DNA of 64,000 bases from sequence record MT446410.1, one strand, 5' to 3'. A program made the translations under genes and the position numbers. Shown piece by piece: positions 44,746-61,785 of the stretch. Under the pieces are notes generated by a model. The model did no database searches. It was not told the origin of the DNA and saw nothing but the letters and a program-made list of their open reading frames with translations. Origin of the DNA: Escherichia virus TH38. Position 1 is the first letter of the stretch; each line of letters starts with the position of its first letter.

Positions 44746-46231
<1,486 letters not shown>

Positions 46232-54848: not shown

Positions 54849-55030
54849 TTACGCTCTCCAATTTCTTCGTAATGACACTCAGTAGTTAAACAGTCTTTAC
54901 AGATTGCTGTATAAACCCTGACGTTAGTAAATCGTTTGTTCTTCCCTTTGGTTGGAGAGCCTTTGGCAAGCTCTCTGATAATCTTGTTACTTAAATGAAG
55001 GTTTGTTCCTTCACATTTAGAGCACTTCAT
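54845..55030 (-). CDS. Small zinc-ribbon protein
   Basis: CxxC...CxxC. Confidence 0.4.
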   Translation of the reverse strand: MKCSKCEGTNLHLSNKIIRELAKGSPTKGKNKRFTNVRVYTAICKDCLTTECHYEEIGERK

Positions 55031-55346
55031 GGTTCATATCTTTATGAATCCTGTAAACAGCTGTCGCCATACAAGCAACAGCCTCATTGTGTGGGAGATG
55101 CATTCCTGTAGAACCATCCCAATCTTTGAACTCATTGTCAAAGACTCCGGTAGGCTCTGGATACAGAGCTTGCAGCTCCACTAGATCATTAGCAACTTGT
55201 TGCCATTTATCATCAGACCAGATAGGGTCATCCAACCAGTAATACAAATAGGAATGGATGATCAATTGCCTTCTATGCCGATTGATTACTTCAGCGGGAC
55301 TTATTTCACTTCCATTTGAAGTCCTAAATGTATTACTGTCAATCAT
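55017..55346 (-). CDS. Small protein resembling the N-terminal Ia region of NAD-dependent DNA ligase
   Basis: HSYLYYWLDDPIWSDDKWQQVANDLVELQALYPE. Confidence 0.3.
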   Translation of the reverse strand: MIDSNTFRTSNGSEISPAEVINRHRRQLIIHSYLYYWLDDPIWSDDKWQQVANDLVELQALYPEPTGVFDNEFKDWDGSTGMHLPHNEAVACMATAVYRIHKDMNHEVL

Positions 55347-56138: not shown

Positions 56139-56795
56139 TTAACTCTCCAAAGTTTTCTTCAGAGCTGCCCACGAGATTGGGTAGAGTTTAGCCATCTCTT
56201 CATCTAGAGATTTAGCAAACACTCGAACTTCATATTGAGCGTGAGAGGAGAGTCGCTGACGGCACAACTCAAACCAGCCATACAAAGAACCAGTCCACAC
56301 CCACTCAGTGATCATCCCCTGAGGAAGAACAAATCGAGCTTGCTCTGGTGCAATAAATTCAATCAACTTGTCATATGCTGCTAGAGAAGCTTCATATGCA
56401 TCATTAATCAACATTAATGCTTCAGCTCGCTCTCCGTCGAGGAGTTGAATCCCTGAACCTGCATGGAGGTCCGAAGGTCTCGCAAAAATCTCTTTAGGGA
56501 TGAAGACTTCAACTGCTCCATCTTTATACCGCCGGGACATTTCGTTCCACGAGAATCCAACCTGATGCTTGCCCAACTGTCTCGCAATTGCGATAGGTGC
56601 TTTGCATCGGAAACTGACTTGCGGGTGTCGGAATGGAGTACAGTGTTTTTCCCGTGCAAGGAAGTTGATAAGTTTTGTGTCTCTCTCATTTAAGTCGCCT
56701 TCTCGAACAACACCGAAAGATACTCTAGCTGCATTGACTACAGATTTGTCACTACCCATTGCTTCAATCAGTGTTGCTTGTAGTTGTTCGTTCAA
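56139..56795 (-). CDS. ThyX-like flavin-dependent thymidylate synthase (divergent motif)
   Basis: HCTPFRH and GKHQVGFSWNEMSRRY resemble the ThyX signatures, with KH in place of RHR. Confidence 0.5.
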   Translation of the reverse strand: MNEQLQATLIEAMGSDKSVVNAARVSFGVVREGDLNERDTKLINFLAREKHCTPFRHPQVSFRCKAPIAIARQLGKHQVGFSWNEMSRRYKDGAVEVFIPKEIFARPSDLHAGSGIQLLDGERAEALMLINDAYEASLAAYDKLIEFIAPEQARFVLPQGMITEWVWTGSLYGWFELCRQRLSSHAQYEVRVFAKSLDEEMAKLYPISWAALKKTLES

Positions 56796-57234
56796 TTAAA
56801 AGTTCCTTTTTTCGATTCATGTAAACTTGATGAGCTTCTTCGGCAGTTCCATACATACCTAGATGTATATCTACTTTATCAATACAAATAACAGCCCTAT
56901 ATCTGATAGTTCCTGATCTGTATTTGACAACCTTAACACCTTGAAGCCCTGTTTCCTTGTTTGATACTCTAGCCCCGAACTGGTTGTGGCAGTTTGTCGA
57001 GGTGTCCACCAATCTCAAGTTCTGTATTGAGTTGTTCTTCTTATTTCTATCGATATGATCTATCTGAGAAGAAGGCCATTCTCCATAATAAAAGAACCAT
57101 GCCACTTTATGAGCTTTGTGTACTTTCCCTTTAAACCGCAGGGTTATGTACTTACTTCGAGTTCCTCCTAATTTCTTACCTTTTCGAAAGAACTCTCCAG
57201 TCTCAGGGATATACTCTAAATCATCGATTACCAT
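56764..57234 (-). CDS. HNH homing endonuclease with AP2-like DNA-binding domain
   Basis: IDHIDRNKKNNSIQNLRL and GVKVVKYRSGTIRYRAVICI. Confidence 0.6.
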   Translation of the reverse strand: MVIDDLEYIPETGEFFRKGKKLGGTRSKYITLRFKGKVHKAHKVAWFFYYGEWPSSQIDHIDRNKKNNSIQNLRLVDTSTNCHNQFGARVSNKETGLQGVKVVKYRSGTIRYRAVICIDKVDIHLGMYGTAEEAHQVYMNRKKELLIERTTTSNTD

Positions 57235-57499
57235 TCAGAGCTGTATCTAAAAATGCTTTCAGGTTTGCTTCAGTCTGCATACCAGAGAGGCTGTAGTGTG
57301 TACCGCTGTTACGGTCAGGCACAACGAAAGCAGGGATACTTCGTACACCATACTTAACAGCTTGTTCACGACCATCACCTTCAAGGATGTTAATCTCTTC
57401 CACTTCTACATCAAACTCCTTAACAACCTTCTCAAAGGTAGGAGCCATTGCTTTACATGGAGCACACTGATCGCTATAAAACTTAATTACTTTAGACAT
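57221..57499 (-). CDS. Thioredoxin
   Basis: CAPC active site, 92 aa. Confidence 0.7.
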   Translation of the reverse strand: MSKVIKFYSDQCAPCKAMAPTFEKVVKEFDVEVEEINILEGDGREQAVKYGVRSIPAFVVPDRNSGTHYSLSGMQTEANLKAFLDTALNGNR

Positions 57500-57517
57500 G
57501 TAAATCCTTATGCAGTC

Positions 57518-57687
57518 AAGAGGTGAAGCAGGAACGGGATAACAACAGCTACGATAACCATGATAGTTGATGCTGTTTGAATCTCACCTTTCTTATCAGG
57601 AGTTTCTTCAATAAGCTTACCAGAAGCCCAATAAATACCACCACCAATAAAGATAGCCCAAATACCCCATACGATTGCTGATAACAT
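57518..57687 (-). CDS. Small two-TM membrane protein (56 aa) missing from the ORF track
   Basis: ATG with AAGGA RBS; MLSAIVWGIWAIFIGGGIYWASGKLIEETPDKKGEIQTASTIMVIVAVVIPFLLHLLTA. Confidence 0.4.
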
Positions 57688-57747: not shown

Positions 57748-58359
57748 TTAGTAAGACACATCACCACTTGAATGGGACATGTTGCTCTTGACGAAGTAGC
57801 AATACTTGCCAAGACCTTCATTAATTTCTTGAAGCATACTCTGATCGACAGGGTAGGTGGCTAAATCACCATCAAACTCATCCATCTTCTCAATAATACA
57901 CATCAAGGTCATGCACATATCAGAGAGCATACCGTCCATGTCTAGATCAGCATTACCCTCTGAGAACCAAGCATGGGAGAGATAATTAGCTGCTGTAGCA
58001 TCCACTTTAACGCAGTGGTAACGCATACGTTCAGCAATACGATCTCCTACCTGTCGTGCGTAATCTTCCAGCTCATCAAACATACCATGAACACCCTGAA
58101 ATCCTGCACCAGAGACGTTCCAGTGGTAGTTTTTAGCTTTGATATGCAATAGTTCCATGTTAGCTTGTAAGCAGCTCAGGATGTGTTCTAGGCTGTTTCC
58201 ACTAATCATACCTTGCATTGTTTCAAGGCGAGAGATTGATAGGTCGGACCGGTCTAACATGCTATAACTATCACGACCAATCTCAGGTAAATCAAAAACA
58301 TTCTTATGCATTTGGGTTTTCTCCATCAAGTTCAACTGAGTTAGCAACGTTACGTGCAA
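57748..58359 (-). CDS. Dps-like ferritin (DNA-binding ferritin-like protein)
   Basis: NYHWNVSGAGFQGVHGMFDEL matches the Dps ferroxidase-site signature. Confidence 0.55.
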   Translation of the reverse strand: MHVTLLTQLNLMEKTQMHKNVFDLPEIGRDSYSMLDRSDLSISRLETMQGMISGNSLEHILSCLQANMELLHIKAKNYHWNVSGAGFQGVHGMFDELEDYARQVGDRIAERMRYHCVKVDATAANYLSHAWFSEGNADLDMDGMLSDMCMTLMCIIEKMDEFDGDLATYPVDQSMLQEINEGLGKYCYFVKSNMSHSSGDVSY

Positions 58360-58633
58360 TATTATCCATTACCTGCTGGGTAATTACGATGCAGTTCTGT
58401 GGGTCTACTGACTTAGAACGCCCCATTTCAGGGTCATACACCTTAACTCGCTTAGCAGTTGAGCCTGTAACCTGAAGAACCTTCAACAGATATCCCTGAT
58501 TACCAATAGACCAAGCAACAACATCACGATTCTTGATAAAGCGACCAAGCATATCACGATGATAAAACTGTTGCATCACCTTGGATTTTGTAATCTCTTC
58601 AGTGGGCGGGGCCACTTTACTCAAATCTAACAT
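58304..58633 (-). CDS. Hypothetical protein (109 aa)
   Basis: ORF. Confidence 0.4.
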   Translation of the reverse strand: MLDLSKVAPPTEEITKSKVMQQFYHRDMLGRFIKNRDVVAWSIGNQGYLLKVLQVTGSTAKRVKVYDPEMGRSKSVDPQNCIVITQQVMDNIARNVANSVELDGENPNA

Positions 58634-58705
58634 AACTCTCTCCTGTAAAATACAAATTCTTATTGTACTCTATATACATTTGAGAGTTATCATATCTACT
58701 ACCAA

Positions 58706-58915
58706 TCAGTAGTAAATTACTTTAGACATAAAAGAACCAGTGTTAGGGTCTTCATACCAGCGATGTATGTCAGCGCTTTTTACTATTGTGCCCAGAGTCT
58801 TCAACTGTTTCTTAGCAATACGAGCCTCTTTGCGAGTGTCAAACAATTTGATGTTATCTTTTCTCATGTGTTGCTCAAGATCCCAAACAACATGAATAGC
58901 CCACATCTTTTTCAT
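58706..58915 (-). CDS. Small basic protein, tandem paralog 3 of 3 (C-terminal ...KVIYY)
   Basis: Shares the TR..AR..KK ... SKV.YY pattern with its two neighbours. Confidence 0.5.
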   Translation of the reverse strand: MKKMWAIHVVWDLEQHMRKDNIKLFDTRKEARIAKKQLKTLGTIVKSADIHRWYEDPNTGSFMSKVIYY

Positions 58916-59124
58916 TAGTAATGTACCTTTCCGCTGATATAAACACGACCAGAAGAATACTCCTTGGCCTTATGAATACTGATGCTCTTAGTTAAGTCTA
59001 CATTGAACATAGACTTTTTAAAATCTCGAGCCTGTTGACGAGTGGGTAGTGCAGTCATAGTCATACCACCTGATGCCCACTTAATCTTTGCTAACCAAAA
59101 TTGTCTCATAGTGATCGGTCTCAT
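58915..59124 (-). CDS. Small basic protein, tandem paralog 2 of 3 (C-terminal ...KVHY)
   Basis: 1-nt start/stop overlaps with neighbours. Confidence 0.5.
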   Translation of the reverse strand: MRPITMRQFWLAKIKWASGGMTMTALPTRQQARDFKKSMFNVDLTKSISIHKAKEYSSGRVYISGKVHY

Positions 59125-59321
59125 TAATAATAAACCTTACTGTTAACACAAAAAGCACCTTCACTATTCACGATAGCTTTTCCTAGTGTAACCTTATTAA
59201 GTCTAAAAGTAGATTTGTATTGATTTTTGACCCTACGTGCGTGCTCTCGAGTCTTAACAAAATCTACAGCTACTAACTCTCCAGTCGTGTTATCATGTAC
59301 ACGAACAATCCACTTTTTCAT
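59124..59321 (-). CDS. Small basic protein, tandem paralog 1 of 3 (C-terminal ...KVYY)
   Basis: As above. Confidence 0.5.
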   Translation of the reverse strand: MKKWIVRVHDNTTGELVAVDFVKTREHARRVKNQYKSTFRLNKVTLGKAIVNSEGAFCVNSKVYY

Positions 59322-59855
59322 TTACACACCTTTAGATGCAACTACACCTTCAGAGTTATTATAACGACCCTTCACTGCATAGGAGTGCTCCCCTGCATGA
59401 GAGTGCTCAAACATAACCATCTGACCAACACGCATACCAGCACGAACTCGTAAGCTATGATGCTTGGTTACGTTATGGAATTCAAATGTCAGCTTACTGC
59501 TATTAAACCCTGCGTCTGCCCACCCAGCGTGGAGATGGTTCAAACCACAACGAGCCATAGATGAACGCAGAACAAACAGACTTGAGATGTTATCTGGAAG
59601 ATTAAACTCCTCCATAGAGTGAGCCAAGAAGAACTGACCCGGAGTGATAACCAAACCCTCTTCAGGAATCTTTACTTCCTTCCACTGAAGATTCTCTTTC
59701 GCATCAATATCAACGATGCCATCAGCCTGTTCTTCAACAAGGATAGTATCACCAATACGGATATCCACACTAGCAGCGTTAACATACTTATGCTCCGCAT
59801 CCAGATAGCCATTGTCAATTACATCGTGCAGTTCAACACTTCCTAGTAAACTCAT
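59322..59855 (-). CDS. dCTP deaminase / dUTPase-superfamily enzyme
   Basis: ASVDIRIGD, ITPGQFFLA and RSSMARCGL...HAGWADAGF motifs. Confidence 0.55.
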   Translation of the reverse strand: MSLLGSVELHDVIDNGYLDAEHKYVNAASVDIRIGDTILVEEQADGIVDIDAKENLQWKEVKIPEEGLVITPGQFFLAHSMEEFNLPDNISSLFVLRSSMARCGLNHLHAGWADAGFNSSKLTFEFHNVTKHHSLRVRAGMRVGQMVMFEHSHAGEHSYAVKGRYNNSEGVVASKGV

Positions 59856-59864
59856 TCTTATTCC

Positions 59865-61226
59865 TTAGTTGTTTGTTTCCATGTCAAAAGAGATTCCACG
59901 ACCCGCTTCATCGGCAAACCGAACTGTGCGGGTTTGAGGTTCTAATACTTCAGGGTTGTTAGCAACAAAGCGGTCAGCGAGATTTCGACTGATGGTCTCA
60001 GCAAGTTCCTCATGAGAAGGAACATCAAGACTACCTGCCACATCTTGGGCCACACCTTCATCAGTCCACACAGCCCTAACAGGTGCGTTGATATCACCAA
60101 CAGCAAAACCCTGACCAGAGAACTGACGTGCGCTAACAGTTAAACCATTTGGACGACCACGAGAAGGACTAGCCATCCATCTCTCCATAGAATCACTTGT
60201 AATACCAAGAGCTTCTTCAAAAGATGTTCTACGAGTAGGGCTTACTCTTCGTGACTCTTGTGCTCGGCGCATTGCAGGGGCTACAAACACCCCTTCAATT
60301 GCATTGTGCCGATTAGGTTCATCTTCTCGACCAAGGAGATCTCCTCCTGTATTAGTTGTTAAGTTTGTCAACCCTTCAGACCAATATGCACGAATCTGGC
60401 TAGAGCCATGAATGCTTGACATTAACTGAATCTCTTCATAAGGGATTCCAAAGAATCGACTCATGTCTCGGTTAACACAATATTGAGCACTTGTTGTATC
60501 CTCAATAAGAGAAACCTGACCTAATCCATTAACCAGATGACTAACCGGCTGGGGTGTGGGAAGATATCGAGTTTGGGCCATGTATTGATGTGCAACTGCT
60601 GGAGAGGAAAATCTCAATACTTGCGAGTTAGGCCACTTCTTGTGAACGTATCTGATTTCACGACTAGAAACAACCACTGGACAGGGGGCGGTCATAGCCA
60701 AATACCCATGAGAAGTCATGAATAAATTGTCAAGAGTCATCGCACCACGACACATCATAGGAAAATTATCCAATACCTCTTCAATAGAAGTAGGATAATT
60801 AAACATGAATTGGATACGAACCCCATTCCACTGAAACTCAATAATATCAGTGAATGTTAATTGAGAACCCCCAGCATAGGATTCGTTCGTAGCTTCAGCA
60901 AGAAGGGATGCATACTCGATATCTTGTGACTCTAGCCATTCCTTCACATTACTTTCAATCTCTCTTCCAAGAGCTTGCCAACGGTCAGTTGGGATGGATA
61001 TGTTTTGAGTTCTTGGTGTTTGTCCTCTGACAATAAAGATATCAATGTCATGTGGAGCTGTGTTATTAAGCACAGCATCTCGAACAGCCCCACCAGTAAT
61101 GATGGGACAGATACCGTCTGGAATTAAGTTGTTATTAATCAATTGCTCAATGAAGTGACGACCAACAGTGATATCAGGTTGTTGAGAAACCTTATCTTCA
61201 ATTTGGTTAATCGGGATAACAATCAT
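59865..61226 (-). CDS. Pol-beta superfamily nucleotidyltransferase (tRNA CCA-adding / poly(A) polymerase head-like) with about 330-aa extension
   Basis: ITGGAVRDAVLNNTAPHDIDIF; start taken at the ATG one nt after the exonuclease stop. Confidence 0.5.
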   Translation of the reverse strand: MIVIPINQIEDKVSQQPDITVGRHFIEQLINNNLIPDGICPIITGGAVRDAVLNNTAPHDIDIFIVRGQTPRTQNISIPTDRWQALGREIESNVKEWLESQDIEYASLLAEATNESYAGGSQLTFTDIIEFQWNGVRIQFMFNYPTSIEEVLDNFPMMCRGAMTLDNLFMTSHGYLAMTAPCPVVVSSREIRYVHKKWPNSQVLRFSSPAVAHQYMAQTRYLPTPQPVSHLVNGLGQVSLIEDTTSAQYCVNRDMSRFFGIPYEEIQLMSSIHGSSQIRAYWSEGLTNLTTNTGGDLLGREDEPNRHNAIEGVFVAPAMRRAQESRRVSPTRRTSFEEALGITSDSMERWMASPSRGRPNGLTVSARQFSGQGFAVGDINAPVRAVWTDEGVAQDVAGSLDVPSHEELAETISRNLADRFVANNPEVLEPQTRTVRFADEAGRGISFDMETNN

Positions 61227-61227
61227 T

Positions 61228-61785
61228 TTACATTTTCCAATATAATGAAGGTGGGTCGTAAGGGTCGAATCCTGTGAGTTCACACAAGTATTTATAAACC
61301 TTAACGGTTAAGTTAACGTCCTGTTCACAATAAGTAAACATATCTTCAGTGAAAGCATCCCATGCTTCCTCTTGCTCACCGTAATCTCCTTTAAGTTCCT
61401 CTAAGAACTCACCCCACTGCTTCAAGCCATGACCTCTTGGGCCATGTCTAGGGTCGCCTTTCGGATACTCAGGACTGTCACCAATACGGTCAGGTTTAAG
61501 ATATCGACTAAGACATAGAGTGTCAAAGACGTTAAAATGATATTTAATCAAAGAAGGATACATCTTCTTCAGAGCAGGTAAGTCGAAGTCAATAATGTTA
61601 TGACCAACGAGCACATCAGCTTCTGTAAGTTTACGAATCCCGTCTTCAATTTGGTGAGGCCGATAGCCCCACCTTTCACCAGTTTCAACATTGAAGATGT
61701 AAATACACCATACTTTAGTTATGTCATCGTACAGTGCATTACTCTCGATATCGAATGCAAACACTTTCTTCTTTTTCTTTACCAC
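61228..61785 (-). CDS. Stand-alone DEDDy 3'-5' exonuclease domain protein
   Basis: FDIES (Exo I), HNIIDFD (Exo II), YCEQD (Exo III). Confidence 0.6.

Follow-up and report, generated by a model that had tools for sequence, protein, structure and literature searches.

A predicted Dps-family mini-ferritin in the P68 operon of a phiEco32-like Kuravirus

We identify a minus-strand gene in the window (the whole 64,000-nucleotide stretch of DNA analysed here) as encoding a predicted Dps-family mini-ferritin. The protein is made during infection, and its best explanation, which we hold with moderate confidence, is an iron-detoxifying Dps cage that would replace a silenced host peroxide response. The Dps identification is correct but already known, being present in the RefSeq annotation of phiEco32 and in at least two later genome papers. 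As a discovery it carries little weight; the timing conferred by the P68 promoter, during silencing of sigma70 and sigmaS, supplies a concrete reason for the phage to possess its own peroxide and iron defence.

The gene, its predicted fold and its ferroxidase site

Comparison of the 7-kb stretch around the Dps gene with phage records gave 98 matches at 80-99% nucleotide identity, nearly all of them phiEco32-type Escherichia or Shigella phages (SU10, EC.W2-6, BASEL Bas86-94). Judged from its sequence, the window belongs to a virulent podophage of E. coli, a Kuravirus of the phiEco32 type; phiEco32 itself is classified in Caudoviricetes, Gordonclarkvirinae, Kuravirus. Window and phiEco32 are collinear apart from a circular permutation, positions 13213-64000 corresponding to phiEco32 2163-52141.

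The first-pass annotation placed the gene at 57748-58359. The minus-strand open reading frame over 57748..58359 is real and unbroken, but it is the maximal mechanical frame, with a TTG start inside the upstream gene 68, and the likely start is the ATG at 58311, which gives a protein of 187 aa. This start is favoured because a GGAG lies 9 nt upstream, because it overlaps the stop of gene 68 (58304-58306) by 8 nt and because it agrees exactly with phi32_67, annotated at 564 nt and 187 aa. The MH(K/N)N position is the start in all homologues aligned, and the extension 58312..58359 is probably untranslated. Read from the ATG, the translation is 100% identical over 187 aa to phiEco32 gp67 (YP_001671812.1, phi32_67), labelled in RefSeq as "DNA binding protein, member of the Dps family". 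The features of the gene are as follows.

57748..58311, minus strand: Dps-family gene, 187 aa plus stop, equivalent to phiEco32 gp67 (100% amino acid identity, PF00210, PDB Dps matches, AF2/Foldseek, ligand alignment)
58123-58125, 58087-58089, 58042-58044 and 58030-58032, minus strand: codons of the ferroxidase residues H63, H75, D90 and E94, respectively (checked by eye)
58120-58122, minus strand: codon of W64, the Trp next to the first ferroxidase His
58312..58359, minus strand: in-frame extension from the TTG start, inside gene 68 (candidate starts and ribosome-binding sites compared; the phiEco32 annotation starts at the ATG)
58321..58324, minus strand: GGAG ribosome-binding site with a 9-nt spacer to ATG 58311 (read directly from the sequence)

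Pfam PF00210 (Ferritin-like) matches the protein with E=2.6e-7 and 31.1 bits, against a gathering cut-off of 24.5; this general model matches residues 55-108 only, and the profile search against the PDB spans residues 40-172. The match to PHROG 3636 has E=2.6e-55. Nearly all phmmer matches in the PDB are Dps, the best being M. smegmatis Dps2 (2.7e-9), while a profile of 15 homologues gives B. anthracis Dlp-2 as its best PDB match (5.6e-15) with near full-length coverage, and hhalign pairs the homologue profile with E. coli Dps at a probability of 95.4% (E=1.9e-8).

An AlphaFold2 (AF2) monomer model of the gp67 homologue, with a mean pLDDT of 79.8 and a pTM of 0.72, has Dps topology: helices A (41-65), B (71-98), a short BC (107-112), C (125-150) and D (154-176), together with an extra N-terminal helix at 22-37 that is modelled with lower confidence. 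The predicted structure thus has the hallmarks of the Dps fold, namely a four-helix bundle, a short BC helix in a long B-C loop and no fifth E helix. All of the best 50 Foldseek matches in the PDB are Dps or Dps-like, with target-normalised TM-scores up to 0.92 and rmsd down to 1.1 A. The claim of the first-pass annotation that a lytic phage encodes a Dps-like ferritin is therefore borne out by the Pfam, PDB and PHROG profiles, by the AF2 topology and by these fold matches, and the ferritin-like fold prediction that it had proposed as a check returned the Dps four-helix arrangement.

Other identities were considered and rejected. A 24-mer ferritin or bacterioferritin is excluded because the model lacks an E helix and because Dps-type proteins make up the best 50 fold matches and all significant PDB sequence matches, save for one engineered Dps-bacterioferritin fusion chain. 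The protein scores 34.5 bits against the enterobacterial Dps model NCBIfam NF006975, whose curated cut-off is 114; it does not qualify as an orthologue of host Dps, and its function may have diverged. Recent capture of the host dps gene was rejected on an identity of ~19% and on the best relatives being Gram-positive or actinobacterial-type Dps.

H63, H75, D90 and E94 follow the canonical ferroxidase spacing H-x11-H-x14-D-x3-E. The signature written in the first-pass annotation as HWNV.G..F...VH.M.D is likewise there, but was given one wildcard too many: the protein reads HWNVSGAGFQGVHGMFD, the real spacing being F..VH. That annotation had also proposed aligning the ferroxidase residues in a profile comparison, and hhalign and the sequence alignment both pair the four with H51, H63, D78 and E82 of E. 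coli Dps, whose reference sequence agrees with PDB 1dps/1f30 over its full length. The four residues are invariant in 15 close homologues, and again in an 18-sequence alignment of Kuravirus, Privateer, 7-11, LAh_8, further library relatives and E. coli Dps, in which W64 is nearly invariant. By sequence, all four ligands of the inter-subunit ferroxidase centre are thus present, H63 and H75 predicted to come from one subunit and D90 and E94 from its two-fold partner. In the C-D loop region, where acidic residues line the ferritin-like three-fold pore of Dps, the protein has D144, E145, D147, D149 and D156, in columns that vary across the phage clade. Features conserved within that clade are the N-terminal extension, whose R28 is invariant among close homologues, a C-terminus of the form ...SNMSH..DVSY and an invariant Met/Cys-rich patch in helix C (M128/D131/M132/C133/M134).

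Relatives were detected by tblastn in 167 of 50,697 phage records. Full-length relatives number 97, at 81-100% identity, and all are Kuravirus-like, so that essentially every member carries the gene (97 of about 98 records). Homologues at 31-45% identity occur in other prolate C3 podophages (Salmonella 7-11 and SE131; Proteus Privateer; Cronobacter GAP52 and 009; Aeromonas LAh and BUCT695), and matches at ~30% identity in large Streptomyces phages. An exhaustive profile search of 1.84 billion representatives yielded 3,394 matches at E<=1e-3, only seven of which reached E<=1e-30; the phage clade therefore forms a small and divergent branch of a very large Dps family. A word-indexed protein search recovered close relatives only. 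Predicted viral structures contain Dps-fold proteins in Lactobacillus phages, Bacillus phage G and many uncultured phages.

Conservation of the gene in each of the five C3 phages with a genome sequence by 2014 has been described (PMC4281155), and Dps-like genes have been noted in Lactobacillus and gut phages with discussion of an oxidative-stress and iron rationale (PMC6669764, PMC8008677). The first-pass annotation called Dps homologues unusual in virulent phages; uncommon they are, as the tblastn count indicates, but the word overstates the case for a gene that was already annotated, is conserved in C3 phages and has been noted in others. The searchable literature yielded no biochemical or genetic study of any phage Dps. 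Among 60 records listed, at least 18 distinct Kuravirus genomes (including ES17, DE5, IME267, YW01 and EC.W2-6) label this Dps gene "integrase". This label is a propagated mis-annotation; it implies a temperate phage and could wrongly flag virulent phages in therapy-safety screens, in a group of therapeutic-candidate coliphages for which the phage Dps is a core gene throughout. We propose "Dps-family ferroxidase (predicted)" as a better label.

Genomic context and the P68 promoter

In all four lineages of prolate C3 podophages examined (Kuravirus, Privateervirus, Moazamivirus and Lahexavirus) the Dps gene lies in a replication and nucleotide-metabolism module, between DNA polymerase and primase/helicase and near thioredoxin, ThyX and dCTP deaminase. 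In the Aeromonas phage LAh_8 it is found between anaerobic ribonucleotide reductase (RNR) subunits and an ATP-cone regulator, and in Privateer it adjoins an NrdD-like fragment. The relevant features of the window are listed below.

45128..45769, minus strand: gene for gp36, the phage sigma factor that reads P68 (100% identical to phi32_36 by tblastn)
55017-55346, minus strand: protein of 109 aa with only an Nlig-Ia domain (Pfam Nlig-Ia, E=2.1e-35)
56139..56795, minus strand: ThyX, flavin-dependent thymidylate synthase (Pfam PF02511, E=3.2e-43)
56764-57234, minus strand: HNH_3 endonuclease, 156 aa, overlapping the thioredoxin and ThyX genes (Pfam E=1.6e-13)
57221..57499, minus strand: thioredoxin (gp65 homologue), same operon direction (Pfam PF00085, E=2.3e-13)
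57508..57687, minus strand: gene 66 homologue (gp66), 59 aa, between Dps and thioredoxin (PHROG 9296, phi32_66)
58304..58633, minus strand: gene 68 homologue (gp68), 109 aa (PHROG 10984)
58673..58681, minus strand: P68 middle-promoter element AAATGTATA (pattern search; intergenic sequence identical to phiEco32)
58706-59321, minus strand: three tandem small genes of 69, 69 and 65 aa, equivalent to phi32_69-71
59322..59855, minus strand: dCTP deaminase, upstream of Dps and in the same module (Pfam PF22769, E=3.5e-34)
59865-61283: nucleotidyltransferase

The thioredoxin, ThyX and dCTP deaminase neighbours recognised in the first-pass annotation are each confirmed by Pfam. The P68 element precedes gene 68 by 47 nt and fits the consensus tAATGTAtA, whose core AATGTA is recognised by the phage sigma factor gp36. 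Because P68 is matched and the spacer is identical to that of phiEco32, the Dps operon depends on the phage sigma factor, with Dps as the second gene transcribed from P68, after gp68. A gp36-dependent promoter before gene 68 is listed in an earlier study (PMC8948821). P68 has been used for in vitro transcription as a middle promoter dependent on gp36 and gp79, and a 2025 study determined by cryo-EM the gp79/gp36/RNAP open complex on this promoter and reported that gp79 inhibits the sigma70 and sigmaS holoenzymes (PMC12276001). The gp79 gene lies just beyond the window end. A scan near the Dps gene for a sigma70 promoter of its own found fewer promoter-like sites than in shuffled sequences, no intrinsic terminator adjoining the gene appeared in the scan, and the 60-nt spacer after the Dps stop folds like shuffled sequence (z=0.0).

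In three of the four lineages gene 68 immediately precedes Dps, and its product has homologues in Privateer, LAh_8 and 7-11 (E 5e-16 to 2e-18). A Pfam search with 14 gp68 homologues gave no match. Its AF2 model is poor (pLDDT 58) and predicts, with low confidence, a small SH3/Tudor-like barrel, for which Foldseek against the PDB returned nothing below E=0.01 and only generic SH3/Tudor/PWWP barrels. The protein has also been detected in the SU10 proteome. It is possible that gp68 is a functional partner of the phage Dps.

Several neighbours merit separate description. The translated gp66 homologue contains two hydrophobic stretches and is a putative small membrane protein in an otherwise cytoplasmic enzyme operon. 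The HNH_3 gene is absent at that position in phiEco32 and is probably a homing-endonuclease insertion. The Nlig-Ia protein comprises only the NAD+-binding Ia domain of LigA-type ligases, far too short for its phiEco32 label "DNA ligase", and may modulate host ligase or NAD+ metabolism. The phi32_69-71 homologues, which gave no Pfam match, are distant paralogues of one another that have W5, T27, R28, A31, R32, K35 and a C-terminal Tyr in common.

Proposed role and alternative readings

The first-pass annotation put forward DNA protection, iron sequestration or service to the nucleotide module as candidate functions. By homology to its family, gp67 would assemble into a 12-subunit hollow cage that oxidises Fe(II), preferentially with H2O2 (or O2), and stores Fe(III) inside, so that both Fenton reactants would be removed. 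Host dps is driven by sigmaS in stationary phase and by sigma70 with OxyR during growth. According to genomic context and published work on phiEco32, host RNA polymerase with the phage sigma gp36 reads P68 under activation by gp79, with Dps as a middle gene, and gp79 also shuts off host sigma70- and sigmaS-dependent transcription. In our proposal, since both routes to host dps are thereby blocked, the infected cell could not induce its own Dps or peroxide response. The phage Dps, together with the phage thioredoxin, would substitute for it and protect replicating phage DNA during DNA replication and nucleotide synthesis. ThyX, encoded in the same operon, uses reduced flavin, which is known to give rise to H2O2, and its chemistry is a plausible local source of peroxide.

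Some observations sit less easily with this proposal. Salmonella phage 7-11 has no gp79 and leaves host transcription on (PMC8948821), yet it retains its Dps gene, and the silenced-host argument is therefore not the whole reason for conservation of the gene. The score of 34.5 bits against the NCBIfam cut-off of 114 suggests that function may differ from that of host Dps. Moreover, the acidic pore residues D144, E145, D147 and D149 vary across the clade, and an iron cage does not account for the M128/D131/M132/C133/M134 patch or for the N- and C-terminal extensions.

An alternative is that the protein mainly binds or condenses DNA, coating replicating phage DNA or compacting the host nucleoid and shielding it from damage or nucleases, with ferroxidase activity secondary. 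Both RefSeq and PHROG 3636 carry the label "DNA binding protein", and some Dps do bind DNA, for example that of E. coli (PMC12802909). However, Listeria Dps and B. anthracis Dlp-1 and Dlp-2, which are among the closest structural matches, bind no DNA. The known determinants of DNA binding in Dps are the lysine-rich N-terminus of E. coli Dps and, more generally, a basic tail at either terminus or a surface rich in basic residues. The phage protein lacks the lysine/arginine-rich tail of E. coli-type DNA-binding Dps: it has a pI of 4.7 and a net charge of -15, its 44-residue N-terminal extension contains four K/R against seven D/E (net charge -3), and its C-terminal tail has no basic residue (net charge -1). 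Because the protein is so strongly acidic and without a basic tail, DNA binding of the E. coli type is improbable; on these calculated charges we consider the "DNA binding protein" label unsupported and think it probable that the protein does not engage DNA as E. coli Dps does. A small barrel protein such as gp68 might instead serve as a DNA adaptor, as its gene is translationally coupled to Dps and conserved and as its best, albeit weak, fold matches (E>0.01) are to PWWP/Tudor barrels, including one structure determined with ssDNA, but the gp68 model is of low confidence at pLDDT 58. Overall, we regard a primary role in DNA binding as unlikely.

The protein could also be a virion-associated component of prolate C3 podophages, either inside the head or attached to the particle, where it would shield the packed genome from iron or peroxide damage outside the cell, or enter the cell with the DNA. 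Mass spectrometry of CsCl-purified Privateer virions found the Dps homologue, whose function the authors called unverified, together with ten predicted virion-associated proteins (PMC7881722), and in SU10 preparations the protein gave the most peptides of any middle-gene product (PMC4281155). The SU10 sample had only been concentrated, however, and early proteins, DNA polymerase, thioredoxin, PhoH and the sigma factor were present in it as well; a 250-kDa cage loaded with iron could, if abundant, simply co-purify with particles. A cryo-EM and gel study of SU10 names gp20-24 as head-internal ejection proteins and makes no mention of gp67 (PMC9509320), and the gene lies in the middle replication module, outside the late structural genes. 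Dps-fold domains do occur fused within proteins of 333-763 aa named "prohead protease" from uncultured Caudovirales (BFVD A0A6J7XDU5, A0A6J7WPK9, A0A6J7WIS1), which makes capsid targeting possible in some phages and hints that these phages target a mini-ferritin into the procapsid, comparable to the ferritin cargo of encapsulins. If true, a place in the virion would explain the detections in two independent virion proteomes, the conservation in each C3 lineage examined regardless of shutoff strategy and the protease fusions. We nevertheless consider it quite improbable, and we give equally little credence to the specific version in which the Dps cage is an iron-detoxifying nanocage that travels with the genome as a virion or head component, perhaps recruited via the Kuravirus-specific N- or C-terminal extensions or via gp68.

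Iron storage for donation, rather than protection, would be the main role if the cage provided iron to enzymes that need it for making nucleotides, whether of the phage or of the host, ribonucleotide reductases for instance. The constant position of the gene inside a nucleotide-metabolism module is compatible with this, as are the anaerobic RNR subunits and ATP-cone regulator that flank it in LAh_8 and the NrdD-like fragment next to it in Privateer. In phiEco32, however, there is no annotated RNR or Fe-S enzyme, and no iron-dependent enzyme is annotated among its genes, about two thirds of which are hypothetical. ThyX is a flavoenzyme, dCTP deaminase needs no iron and, relative to ferritins, Dps proteins as a rule donate iron poorly, all of which count against donation, and we hold this role to be very doubtful. 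The iron-detoxifying cage is the reading we retain as most likely.

Comparison with known systems

The closest counterparts are phiEco32 gp67 and its Kuravirus orthologues (such as SU10 CDS67). The phiEco32 protein is identical in sequence, and its gene has the same neighbours, the same gene 68 overlap and the same promoter P68; the phage of the window has an extra HNH endonuclease gene, which lies downstream of Dps between thioredoxin and ThyX in the same direction.

Among cellular proteins, the Gram-positive and actinobacterial Dps (B. anthracis Dlp-2, 1jig; B. subtilis MrgA, 2chp; S. aureus Dps, 2d5k; M. smegmatis Dps2, 2z90/4m35) are the best sequence matches at 22-27% identity, and the predicted phage structure resembles them with target-normalised TM-scores of 0.80-0.91 and rmsd of 1.1-2.6 A, sharing the BC helix and the four ligands. 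Unlike these proteins, the phage Dps has an acidic N-terminal extension of ~44 residues with a predicted helix at 22-37, a C-terminal tail conserved as ...SNMSHSSGDVSY and, in helix C, a stretch rich in Met and Cys (DMCMTL). The Dps of E. coli (1dps) has the same fold, and its H51/H63/D78/E82 and W52 correspond to H63/H75/D90/E94 and W64, whereas identity is only ~19%, the lysine-rich N-terminal tail is absent from the phage protein and the pI is 4.7 in the phage protein against 5.7 in the host one. Regulation differs as well, since the phage gene has a phage-sigma promoter whereas host dps is controlled by sigmaS or OxyR.

Other phage Dps, in Lactobacillus plantarum myophages, gut "Gratiaviridae", Streptomyces phages and Bacillus phage G (gp346), are alike in having the Dps fold and, in some cases, in lying near DNA-metabolism genes. 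Their identity to the protein described here is nonetheless <=30%, or they are detectable by fold only, and these genes were probably acquired independently.
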